A stretch of DNA of 11,380 nucleotides from a virus: the IMG/VR virus record IMGVR_UViG_3300036045_000388; one strand, 5' to 3'. Every line of letters begins with the position of its first letter. Position 1 is the first letter of the stretch. The notes under the pieces were generated by a model. It searched no databases. It was given only the letters and a program-made list of their open reading frames with translations, and was not told the DNA's origin. Shown here piece by piece: positions 8,274 to 10,229 of this stretch. Both the position numbers and the translations under genes were made by a program.

Positions 8274-10229
8274 ATGCTAACCCGCTTTGGTGATTGGGCT
8301 ATAAATCGACATGGCTTTGATGGTCAACTTCAATTAGAAGTCTTCTCTGGTGAAGGCATTATGAAGCACAAGCCAAAGGACGCCATGTGGAGTCCTGATC
8401 TTTCTACTAATAATGGTTCTTGGAAGTATTATTTTAATGTAGAGGGTGATGATTGCGGTTCTCCCTTACACCCATGTTATTATTTAAGTGTGAATGACTC
8501 TGGCAGTGGAGCATCCATTTCTTTTTCAAGAAATGGATCATATGCTGATAGCGACAAAGGTGTGGCTGGCGATGTTTTTATGGGCGTTCTTAAAGGCTTG
8601 GGTGAGTTTATAGAAACAAGGAAGCCGGTAGGGATAGGCTGGTCTGCTATAGATAAAGATCGTCCTAATAAAGTGACCGGAAAGATAGAAAACCCAAGAG
8701 CCAGAGAACATATTTACGAAGGCTGGGCAATGAGGAACCTTTTCCCAGACAAATACGTTCCGTTAAACTCCCAAAAATGGGTAAGAAGAGATATTTATGA
8801 TTCTGAATTTGTTGCAAATCAGGGTTTTCCACAAGTCCCAGGCAATGTAACAGGCGCATCAAGTCCTTCTGAAAAGAAAAAGGCATATGATGCTCTAGCT
8901 TCTAGTATTAAATCTTCTCAGGAGGAGATTAGTCGTCGTCGTGAAGAGGCACGTTTGAGGGCAGAACAAGAACGTATCGAACGAGAAAGACGTGAGGAAG
9001 AAGAACGTCAAGCTAGATTGGATGCGGCCATTGTTGATCCTACAAAGAATCCTAAAGGCATAAAGGTTGGAGATATTGTTAATTTACTCAATACCAATGA
9101 CTCTTATTGGGAAAGCAAAATTGGCAAAATTATCAGTTTTGAATTAGACGAAGATGCTTTGTTTGCACAAGTTCAATTCTATGATGGCGATGATATGTCT
9201 GGAGAGGGTCGTCGTTACAATAGACACAACTTCCCGATAGATCAATTATCGCCAGAGACTGAAGAATCCAAAATTGCTCGTGAGGAACGTGTGCGACAGG
9301 CTGAAGAACGTCGCAGGGCGGCAGAAGAACAAGAAAGACGTGAGGCAGAAGAAAGATTACAGACTGCTATACAAGATAGAGAAAAGAACCCAGATGACTT
9401 AAAGGTTGGCGACACAGTTATAACTTATGTAAGTCCAACTAGCCGCCAAAATGGTTTGGTTGGAACCTTAAAGAGTTTTGAAATGAGTTATTATGGGCGT
9501 GAATTGCTGGCCAAAATCGAGTGGGATGAAAGATCGAGCCAAGAAATCGGAGAATTCAATTCTACTAGGGCGGTTTCTGTAAAACATTTGCGAAAGAATA
9601 CGCCGGATGTCGCTCAAAGGATCGAAGCTGAAATTCGTAGACACCATCAGGAAGAGTTAATCTCACGCCAGCGTGAACGTGAGGATGCCGATAGAACTGA
9701 GCGTGAAACGCTTGAAAGAAATGCTGCTTCGACTGCGGAGCTTGTTAATGACACGGAAAATAATCCACAAGGCTTAAAAGTTGGCGATCATGTGAAAGTA
9801 ACTGGAGGATGGCCATACAGAAACGTAGGTCGTAGTGGGTATATTGTCTTATTAAGAAGGGCACATTGGGGAAATGAAATCCAAGCAGAAATTAGATTCA
9901 ACAACAGTCGTGCCTCCAGCACAACATCAATTTATCTAAGAAACTTGGCCAGAGATGAGTCTGAAGAGACTCAGAGAATTGCACAAAGGCGTCAGCAGCG
10001 ACAACAACGTGCTGCTGCTGTTGAGCAGTCGGTTCAAGGGTTTGCAATTGGCGATACTGTTATTGTTACATCTGGAATTAATAGAAATAAAACAGGCCGC
10101 ATACTCAGATTCCAGGGTGGCACACAGGGGAACGTCCGTGCTGTTATGCTGGATTCGCAGAACAATCAATTTACTGCAAATATTCGCACGGTTCAAAAGG
10201 TGCAGGAAACCCAGACGCAAGCTAGTTGA
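8274..10229 (+). CDS. repeat protein: unknown N-terminal domain (about 210 aa) plus four tandem modules of Arg/Glu-rich helix followed by an SH3/KOW/Tudor-like small barrel (651 aa)
   Basis: GGGAGA lies 8 nt upstream of the ATG at 8274. There are four modules of about 110 aa. Each begins with an ER-rich tract (for example RRREEARLRAEQERIERERREEEERQARL), then KNP/NNP...(L)KVGD(I/T/H)V (three copies; the fourth is FAIGDTVIV) and G...G-hydrophobic strand patterns. TGA at 10227-10229. Confidence 0.7.
   Translation: MLTRFGDWAINRHGFDGQLQLEVFSGEGIMKHKPKDAMWSPDLSTNNGSWKYYFNVEGDDCGSPLHPCYYLSVNDSGSGASISFSRNGSYADSDKGVAGDVFMGVLKGLGEFIETRKPVGIGWSAIDKDRPNKVTGKIENPRAREHIYEGWAMRNLFPDKYVPLNSQKWVRRDIYDSEFVANQGFPQVPGNVTGASSPSEKKKAYDALASSIKSSQEEISRRREEARLRAEQERIERERREEEERQARLDAAIVDPTKNPKGIKVGDIVNLLNTNDSYWESKIGKIISFELDEDALFAQVQFYDGDDMSGEGRRYNRHNFPIDQLSPETEESKIAREERVRQAEERRRAAEEQERREAEERLQTAIQDREKNPDDLKVGDTVITYVSPTSRQNGLVGTLKSFEMSYYGRELLAKIEWDERSSQEIGEFNSTRAVSVKHLRKNTPDVAQRIEAEIRRHHQEELISRQREREDADRTERETLERNAASTAELVNDTENNPQGLKVGDHVKVTGGWPYRNVGRSGYIVLLRRAHWGNEIQAEIRFNNSRASSTTSIYLRNLARDESEETQRIAQRRQQRQQRAAAVEQSVQGFAIGDTVIVTSGINRNKTGRILRFQGGTQGNVRAVMLDSQNNQFTANIRTVQKVQETQTQAS

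Follow-up and report, generated by a model that had tools for sequence, protein, structure and literature searches.

What does a phage do with a protein built as a row of small barrels held apart by helices? This question is raised by the gene at positions 8274..10229 on the plus strand of the IMG/VR virus record IMGVR_UViG_3300036045_000388, of which we analysed a stretch of 11,380 nucleotides (nt; the window). A preliminary description of this DNA had proposed a 651-amino-acid (aa) protein in which an N-terminal domain is followed by four modules, each a charged helix leading into a small barrel. The list of open reading frames (ORFs) and the translation return the same 651-aa frame on the same strand, and structure prediction together with profile comparison of the barrels recovers the same layout. 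As modelled, it is a beads-on-rods protein with a GNAT-like head and, after it, four KOW-type barrels spaced by helices.

Predicted beads and rods

Run on the family alignment, AlphaFold2 gave a model of the whole protein with a mean per-residue confidence (pLDDT) of 80 and a predicted template-modelling score (pTM) of 0.41. The parts of the gene and of the model are as follows; pI is the isoelectric point, and the helix, strand and alpha/beta-domain limits are those of the model.

8260..8267, plus strand: Shine-Dalgarno-like site GGGAGAAG, seen in the sequence 6 nt 5' of the ATG at 8274
8274..10229, plus strand: whole gene, 651 aa and stop codon, ATG start, from the ORF list and translation
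8274..8864, plus strand: N-terminal domain, aa 1-197, with the predicted alpha/beta domain as its ordered core (aa 35-183), GNAT-like and probably a distant relative of DUF6934
8865..9035, plus strand: helix 1, 57 aa, aa 198-254, its C-terminal two thirds of ER/K type
9036..9260, plus strand: barrel 1, aa 255-329 (strands aa 268-327), NPKGIKVGD signature, pI 4.5 (acidic)
9261..9374, plus strand: helix 2, aa 330-367, ER/K single-helix type, with a P-E-T-E helix-capping box at its start
9375..9602, plus strand: barrel 2, aa 368-443 (strands aa 381-441), NPDDLKVGD signature, pI 6.8 (near neutral)
9603..9731, plus strand: helix 3, aa 444-486, charged single-helix type
9732..9962, plus strand: barrel 3, aa 487-563 (strands aa 506-560), NPQGLKVGD signature, pI 9.4 (basic)
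9963..10031, plus strand: helix 4, 23 aa, aa 564-586, short and Q/R-rich, not an ER tract
10032..10205, plus strand: barrel 4, aa 587-644 (strands aa 595-642), canonical KOW motif (IGDTVIVTSGINRNKTGRI), pI 11.4 (strongly basic)
10206..10229, plus strand: short, disordered C-terminus (ETQTQAS) and stop codon, from the alignment and the homologue tails

Four separate five-stranded beta-barrels are predicted, mostly at pLDDT 80-95, and one continuous helix runs ahead of each (57, 38, 43 and 23 residues in turn). Low pTM with high local confidence is what would be expected of beads on rods that hold no fixed mutual orientation. Independent barrels, as opposed to segments of one large fold, were also what the preliminary description had supposed, and the four separate folds of the model agree with it.

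Comparison of the protein with itself by BLASTP did not find internal repeats, which points to old and divergent modules and makes profile-profile comparison necessary. We therefore cut the four barrel positions (B1 to B4) from the 16-sequence family alignment and aligned them profile against profile with hhalign. Each pair matched, with E 2.5e-13 for B1-B2, 2.8e-9 for B1-B3, 6.5e-8 for B2-B3, 5.8e-7 for B3-B4, 2.3e-5 for B1-B4 and 1.4e-4 for B2-B4. On these profiles all four barrels are mutually homologous, far beyond chance. Their charge follows their position: family mean pI values of 4.7, 6.2, 9.1 and 10.9 for B1 to B4 show that the acidic-to-basic gradient is conserved, and in sequence terms the barrels are four different, putatively position-specific binding modules, not copies of one. 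The preliminary description had suggested a multivalent scaffold; the four barrels are there, but binding by repeated identical units is unlikely, because the modules are specific to their positions. It had likewise placed a KNP..KVGD signature in every module, which holds for barrels 1-3 but not for barrel 4, where G-F-A-I-G-D, of the classical KOW motif, takes the place of NP..KVGD.

Taken alone, barrel 4 scores 23.6 bits (E 4.3e-5) against Pfam KOW (PF00467), above the gathering threshold of 22.3; in the full-length scan it scores 18.7 bits, under that cut-off. The family is also matched by 10 of 13 orthologous barrel-4 sequences (best E 2.4e-6), and the barrel-4 profile finds an SPT5 KOW in the PDB at E 8e-9, with uL24 and NusG KOWs besides. 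By its sequence, then, barrel 4 belongs to the KOW motif family. It shares with the KOW domains of uL24 and eS4 the motif G-D-x-V-x-V-x-x-G-x-x-(K/R)-G-x-x-G-x-I, matches uL24 chains and, like the rRNA-binding KOWs of those proteins, is basic. Barrels 1-3 are unlike them in being divergent, in their NP-x-G-x-K-x-G-D entry motif, in their longer insertions and in the acidity of B1; their link to KOW runs through homology to B4 and the modelled barrel structure. When the whole model was searched against the PDB with Foldseek, the top 20 matches were all SPT5 chains (E 1e-8 to 2e-5), in alignments of about 400 columns that take in several KOW beads in series. Next came the KOW2-3 and KOW6-7 crystal structures (E 4e-5 and 5e-5), eS4 and Agenet/Tudor proteins. 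The KOW/Tudor/SH3-like class first proposed for the barrels is thus borne out by the AlphaFold2 model, by these structural matches and by the Pfam score of B4.

The rods differ from one another. In helices 1-3, charged residues make up 49-58% and hydrophobic ones 11-16%, and each helix has 11-16 i/i+4 opposite-charge pairs (helix 1: 53% charged, 16% hydrophobic, 16 ion pairs; helix 2: 58% and 11%; helix 3: 49% and 14%). Hydrophobic occupancy of the a/d positions is at most 0.29 in any heptad register. By composition and AlphaFold2 model, these three helices have the signature of ER/K single alpha-helices (SAHs). A coiled coil, against which the preliminary description had proposed to check them, was rejected, since helices 1-3 have no heptad seam. 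Helix 4, 35% charged and with one ion pair, does not qualify as an ER/K SAH. The claim that a charged tract opens each module accordingly stands for helices 1-3 but not for the Q/R-rich helix 4. SAH spacers are known from myosin VI/X and caldesmon. The predicted rods are like ER/K SAH spacers in their E/R-rich stretches of 38-57 residues, their closely set i/i+4 ion pairs and their lack of a hydrophobic heptad; they are unlike the known ones in being Arg-rich instead of Lys-rich and in occurring four to a phage protein, each with a small barrel at its end.

Spacer lengths recur across the family. Between the end of B1 and the NP motif of B2 lie 27 aa in 13 of 16 sequences; 12 of 16 have 32 aa between the end of B3 and the B4 G-D, and 7 of the 10 four-module members have 74 aa between the N-terminal domain and B1. 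Aligned sequences thus indicate that the lengths are conserved at 32-37% identity and in spite of low-complexity sequence, and the first two distances lend support to the spacer or ruler idea of the preliminary description. Conserved length in low-complexity helices is seldom seen and points clearly to selection for a physical distance; the protein thus lends itself to testing SAH 'ruler' ideas beyond eukaryotes. Within the family the window protein stands apart: its B1-B2 spacer measures 45 aa, 18 more than usual, or about 2.7 nm. The extra part of this helix 2 spacer is an 18-residue ER-rich insertion of about five helical turns.

In the alignment, each barrel ends in L-(K/R)-K-x-T-P-E, which we take to be a helix N-capping box, and each helix ends in D-P-x-x-N-P-x-G; the two motifs together suggest defined junctions. 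At 1.5 Å per residue the four helices would measure 86, 57, 64 and 34 Å, about 24 nm in sum, and the fully extended protein about 35 nm if the barrels are assumed to take up roughly 2.5 nm each.

This architecture is not peculiar to the window. A word-indexed search of 5.8 billion proteins returned 15 full-length homologues, all metagenomic, of 593-768 aa and 32-37% identity (E 2e-135 to 1e-42). The order of parts is identical in every family member and most have four modules; P0002, P0003 and P0007 have five through an extra B1-type module, P0012 and P0013 through an extra B2-type one, and in P0016 there are three. When the N-domain profile was run with HMMER against the full set of 1.84 billion cluster representatives (50% identity), it reached 201 proteins at E <= 1e-3, 103 of them at E <= 1e-10. 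KOW-type modules are also present in 64 of the 160 N-domain proteins retrieved, and the domain nearly always stands N-terminally, ahead of zero to five recognisable modules of this type. Searching the word index with a 40-sequence N-domain profile gave two proteins and added nothing.

The gene stands with its full architecture on seven viral contigs of IMG/VR, among them IMGVR_UViG_3300032334_002567 with the maximum length of 381 kb, and the family belongs to uncultured large (jumbo or huge) tailed phages. About 100 clusters on large viral contigs imply a function that recurs among large environmental phages and has gone unannotated. The preliminary description had named an assembly artefact as a way in which it could fail; recent duplication and artefact are both rejected, as the order of modules is kept in the 15 homologues and on the IMG/VR contigs and Tandem Repeats Finder (TRF) detects no DNA tandem repeat in the window.

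For the whole protein, Pfam, PHROGs, NCBIfam and PADLOC gave nothing above threshold, in keeping with the original remark that the protein could not be placed in a named family. Its building blocks (KOW barrel, ER/K helix, GNAT-like fold) are of known kinds; their combination goes without a family name, and we found no description of it in the literature searched. What goes beyond the preliminary description is the conserved GNAT-like head, the charge gradient of the barrels and the conserved lengths of the spacers.

A GNAT-like head related to DUF6934

The N-terminal domain is the best-conserved part of the family. Close relatives share W39, F54, D59, C61, C68, Y69, F84, R86, G88, D92, P118, W123, N140, R144, Y148, the L-F-P at 156-158, K160, Y161, W169 and Y175 without exception, and W39, P118, W123, R144 and W169 are still invariant across 40 diverse members. 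A dedicated AlphaFold2 model of the domain, built from 40 sequences, reached pLDDT 89.7 and pTM 0.84, and in it we find the GNAT core fold (strands 2-4, helix 3, strand 5, helix 4, strand 6). At motif level, the sequence resembles GNATs in a K-G-V-G turn before helix 3 and in N140..A-R144...Y148 at helix 4. The head is unlike the GNAT superfamily, RimI-like GNATs of polyvalent proteins included, in having no GNAT Pfam match, an extra N-terminal strand and a longer loop from strand 4 to helix 3. In the whole protein no GNAT family hidden Markov model (HMM) of Pfam matches at E <= 0.1, and the domain is negative in PHROGs, NCBIfam and PADLOC too.

Structural searches of BFVD matched the domain to giant-virus GNATs and to Zeta-toxin, deaminase and ParB proteins, these last three from uncultured phages and from jumbo Agrobacterium phage Atu_ph07. 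Its remote relatives are parts of phage proteins that combine several domains, among them Zeta-toxin/AAA_33, dCMP-deaminase, canonical GNAT and ParB-like ones. Through them the head can be connected to DUF6934 (PF22028). Neither the window domain nor 12 orthologues match PF22028 at its threshold of 27 bits; the N-domain profile, for its part, reaches DUF6934-bearing proteins at E 1e-13 to 1e-5 over profile positions of about 62-148, and PF22028 scores 59.9, 57.5 and 54.2 bits in the region so matched in P0106, P0129 and P0138. The link suggested by these profiles is indirect, via shared relatives.

Aligned with the 'TGEGDAxRIF...SRAKLY' core of DUF6934 proteins are the R86 region, the K-G-V-G turn and N140-x-x-A-R144-x-x-x-Y148. 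In the relatives this core reads 'F-x-R-N..(V/T)-T-G-E-G-D-A-x-R-I-F-A-T-V-L..A-I..Y-I....P..(I/L)-x-F-S-A..K......S-R-A-K-L-Y-x-R-L-V-x-R-Y-A...G-Y', and its counterpart in the family is 'I-S-F-S-R-x-G-S-Y-S-D..K-G-V-G..V-F-K-G-V-L-K-A-L..Y-I...K-P..L-S-W-S-A-V..........A-R-A..V-Y-E-G-W-A'. In GNAT terms, the shared core presumably resembles motif A, where strand 4 turns into helix 3, and motif B, which comprises helix 4 and its Tyr. Head and DUF6934 modules have F-x-R-x..G-x-G..hhhxhh and (S/A)-R-x-x-(L/V)-Y in common. They differ in size, the head being the larger through additional sequence at its N-terminus and a W-x-R-R-D-x-Y-D helix at its C-terminus, and in setting: the head always stands N-terminally, ahead of KOW modules, whereas the relatives adjoin Zeta-toxin/deaminase domains and a basic C-terminal tail. 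We found no literature on DUF6934.

Nine remote relatives (P0106, P0108, P0120, P0128, P0129, P0132, P0138, P0157 and P0160) contain a DUF6934-type module in one to three copies per protein, and most of them begin 'MRA.EFI'. In five (P0120, P0128, P0132, P0157 and P0160) the module is joined by Zeta-toxin/AAA_33, dCMP deaminase and/or canonical GNAT domains; a ParB-like stretch was seen by eye in P0157 and P0160 as well, and four (P0120, P0128, P0132 and P0157) end in a basic tail, '..G-x-x-A-x-x-A-H-W-x-A-N-M-K-x-G-R-x-K-K'. Their domain content gives the nine an architecture of the polyvalent-protein type. Polyvalent proteins with such architectures were described by Iyer et al. 2017, together with phage GNATs predicted to modify proteins (PMC5512222). 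The window protein, with one candidate catalytic domain and KOW barrels, is not of this type. Taken together, models and profiles describe the head as GNAT-like by fold and as a phage-specific module related to DUF6934, one that may or may not be catalytic.

Proposed role and competing explanations

Our proposal is a tethered modifier or adaptor whose docking site is a nucleic-acid/protein machine of the host, and we give this reading an even chance of being right; within it, the head could with roughly equal probability be catalytic or not. The KOW barrels would be the docking modules, with the basic B3 and B4 contacting RNA or DNA and the acidic B1 contacting a protein partner. KOW domains dock in this manner in NusG/Spt5 and in the ribosomal proteins uL24 and eS4. 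The docking site would be a nucleic-acid/protein machine of host or phage; the best candidates are the ribosome and RNA polymerase, since all well-studied KOW domains act on one or the other, and the data favour neither. The stiff helices would act as semi-rigid spacers of defined length that set the reach and the effective concentration of the GNAT-like head, which would acylate a nearby amine on the target or bind the target.

All this would take place in the infected cell during host takeover, a setting suggested by the position of the gene among metabolic and translation-related genes. Across seven homologue contexts we found ClpX, CsrA, PRPP synthase, FolD, denV, NAMPT, NUDIX, Thg1 and RNA ligases and, further, T4 gp13, IleRS, methionine aminopeptidase, PTH2, ClpS, CTP synthase, RNR and a sigma factor, which are genes typical of large phages. 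A similar principle may be seen where a chromo-barrel or Tudor-knot reader accompanies a MYST histone acetyltransferase (Esa1/MOF) and where a helical stalk carries a KOW domain (the Mtr4/Ski2 arch): an SH3-like barrel docks and positions a catalytic module, or rides on a helical arm. These are analogies only, and their common ground with the window protein is limited to fold classes.

A more specific version, in which a 'ruler enzyme' of GNAT type uses four KOW readers and ER/K-set distances to acylate one site on the host ribosome or RNA polymerase, strikes us as unlikely. If an active acyltransferase were indeed aimed at either machine, it would represent a new host-takeover mechanism, and an acyltransferase head would supply the first functional hypothesis for Pfam DUF6934. 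Were the 'ruler enzyme' itself true, it would be the first bacterial-virus enzyme shown with an SAH-defined reach and would define a new class of phage host-takeover factor.

Several observations count against a tethered modifier or adaptor. The GNAT similarity of the head is structural only and of moderate Z; no GNAT family HMM of Pfam matches any of 13 N-domains at E <= 10, and PDB searches with N-domain profiles returned no GNAT, only spurious matches to designed repeats. Among the barrels, 24 B1-B3 sequences gave no Pfam KOW match, and in the PDB B1-B3 find only weak uL24 or SH3 matches (E > 0.2). Single-helix behaviour of the rods is a prediction from composition and AlphaFold2. No neighbour gene is conserved across the seven contexts. 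Megablast with the window and tblastn with the protein against 50,697 phage records yielded no useful match, and the lack of a relative in these deposited phage genomes means that there is no experimental handle. Finally, the relatives of the head occur in tandem, two to three times over (three copies in P0106), or beside a separate canonical GNAT (P0157 and P0160), which fits a non-catalytic binding module equally well.

This last pattern and the absence of any sequence match between the head and a catalytic GNAT family speak for a purely non-catalytic scaffold or adaptor. Its GNAT-like head would have degenerated to a binding module, as may be the case for some DUF6934-type copies, and with four different KOW barrels it would bridge several partners at fixed distances, in the manner of an assembly or organizing ruler and not of an enzyme. 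Conserved spacer lengths and barrels that differ from one another suit it too. Such a scaffold is possible but rather doubtful: the head is nevertheless the best-conserved part, its R86, D92, N140, R144, Y148 and W39/W123/W169 are invariant in the GNAT motif A/B segments, and such a pattern would sooner be expected at a ligand or cofactor site than at a generic interface. The company kept by the remote relatives of the head, in polyvalent-type phage proteins with Zeta-toxin, dCMP-deaminase and ParB-like domains, raises a different prospect, namely that the protein is associated with the virion, either packaged and injected as an effector in the way of polyvalent proteins or built in as a structural rod serving as ruler or decoration. 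Polyvalent proteins have been proposed to be delivered along with phage DNA (PMC5512222). The C-terminal peptide AAESFSFRDYL..ES of most homologues could be a docking signal, and a T4 gp13-like gene is found 5.7 kb away from one homologue. We nonetheless hold a virion protein to be distinctly unlikely, given that the seven contexts are made up of metabolic, translation or RNA-repair genes and not of a structural module, that the window protein is without the peptide and that no PHROGs structural family was matched.

With SPT5 chains as the best structural match of the whole model (E 1e-8), several KOWs and a KOW motif in place, a phage transcription elongation or antitermination factor of the NusG/Spt5 kind also deserves consideration. 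Spt5/NusG proteins, an NGN domain with one to seven KOWs, likewise have an alpha/beta domain at the N-terminus with separate KOW beads strung out behind it. The window protein departs from them in that its head is GNAT-like and not NGN, its linkers are long charged helices of conserved length and not flexible loops, it has no family HMM match and it is phage-encoded. The NusG family is absent from the Pfam and NCBIfam matches, and NusG/Spt5 proteins are not known to have ER/K helices between their KOWs. Membership of NusG/Spt5 was rejected on the N-terminal domain, which is not an NGN, and we regard a factor of this kind as highly improbable.

We give practically no credence to a mis-call, whether a YajC protein, a low-complexity ORF or an assembly artefact. 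The Joint Genome Institute (JGI) does label the identical protein P0001 'preprotein translocase subunit YajC', and weak YajC matches exist at aa 571-602 (14.0 bits in Pfam, 16.6 bits for TIGR00739). These scores are far under the cut-offs of 28.2 (Pfam) and 44.2 bits (TIGR00739) and cover only the KOW-like G-D-x-V turn; conservation over the full length in 15 homologues, confident fold models and the absence of a DNA repeat likewise speak against an error. YajC identity was accordingly rejected, and we read the label as a mis-annotation that arose because of this sub-threshold match (14-17 bits) to the turn.

Gene ends and genomic neighbourhood

The methionine equivalent to that at 8274 is the start in all homologues of the family alignment. 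At the other end, the window protein lacks the conserved '...AAESFSFRDYL..ES' tail that most homologues carry, and since purC starts at 10252 a frameshifted C-terminal tail would have no room. In P0003-P0015, P0017, P0019, L009 and L010 the last KOW is followed by '..P-A-A-E-S-F-S-F-R-D-Y-L-x-Y-x-E-S-R-I..'; the window protein is without it, as is a sub-group made up of P0002, P0020, P0021 and P0041, and these proteins end directly after barrel 4. From its sequence the tail looks like a candidate short docking motif.

Promoter and terminator consensus scans gave only chance-level matches. One sigma-70-like match (10 of 12 positions, at 10236-10263) begins shortly 3' of the KOW-array stop codon and reaches into the first purC codons; matches of this kind turn up here as often as expected by chance.

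The remaining genes of the window are as follows.

8-583, plus strand: ORF with a weak match to a PHROGs family of unknown function (phrog_21654, E 2e-7)
576-1394, plus strand: ORF with a weak match to a PHROGs family of unknown function (phrog_5841, E 6e-10)
1489-2409, plus strand: HPAT-like glycosyltransferase, E 1.5e-6
2939-3397, plus strand: NADAR domain protein, E 3e-28
3399-5987, plus strand: major-vault-protein-like (MVP) protein, 862 aa, Pfam MVP shoulder at E 1.5e-28 and Vault_3 domains
6328-6621, plus strand: DUF1508 protein, E 5e-14
6787-7662 and 7666-8226, minus strand: ORF pair of 291 and 186 aa, GC content 0.35-0.39, divergent from the KOW-array gene
10252-11187, plus strand: SAICAR synthase (purC), E 3e-60, starting 22 nt past the KOW-array stop

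By tblastn, the MVP-like protein is 40-42% identical over 97-98% of its length to sequences in the huge-phage genomes LR756500, LR756501 and LR756503 (462-735 kb). Viral MVPs have already been reported (bioRxiv 10.1101/2023.11.10.566534). The preliminary description had placed the KOW-array gene downstream of an MVP cluster; an MVP-like gene does lie upstream here, but the association is not conserved. No MVP gene occurs within about 10 kb in any of the seven homologous contexts, and a functional link was rejected on this ground. The divergently transcribed, AT-rich two-gene unit that it also reported is found as described: the minus-strand pair is the most AT-rich part of the window, and neither ORF has a significant match in Pfam, PHROGs, NCBIfam or PADLOC.

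Within the ORF at 576-1394, sub-threshold Pfam matches at aa 112-148 are zinc-ribbon or zinc-knuckle-like. The NADAR, DUF1508, purC and HPAT-like genes represent auxiliary metabolism typical of large phages.

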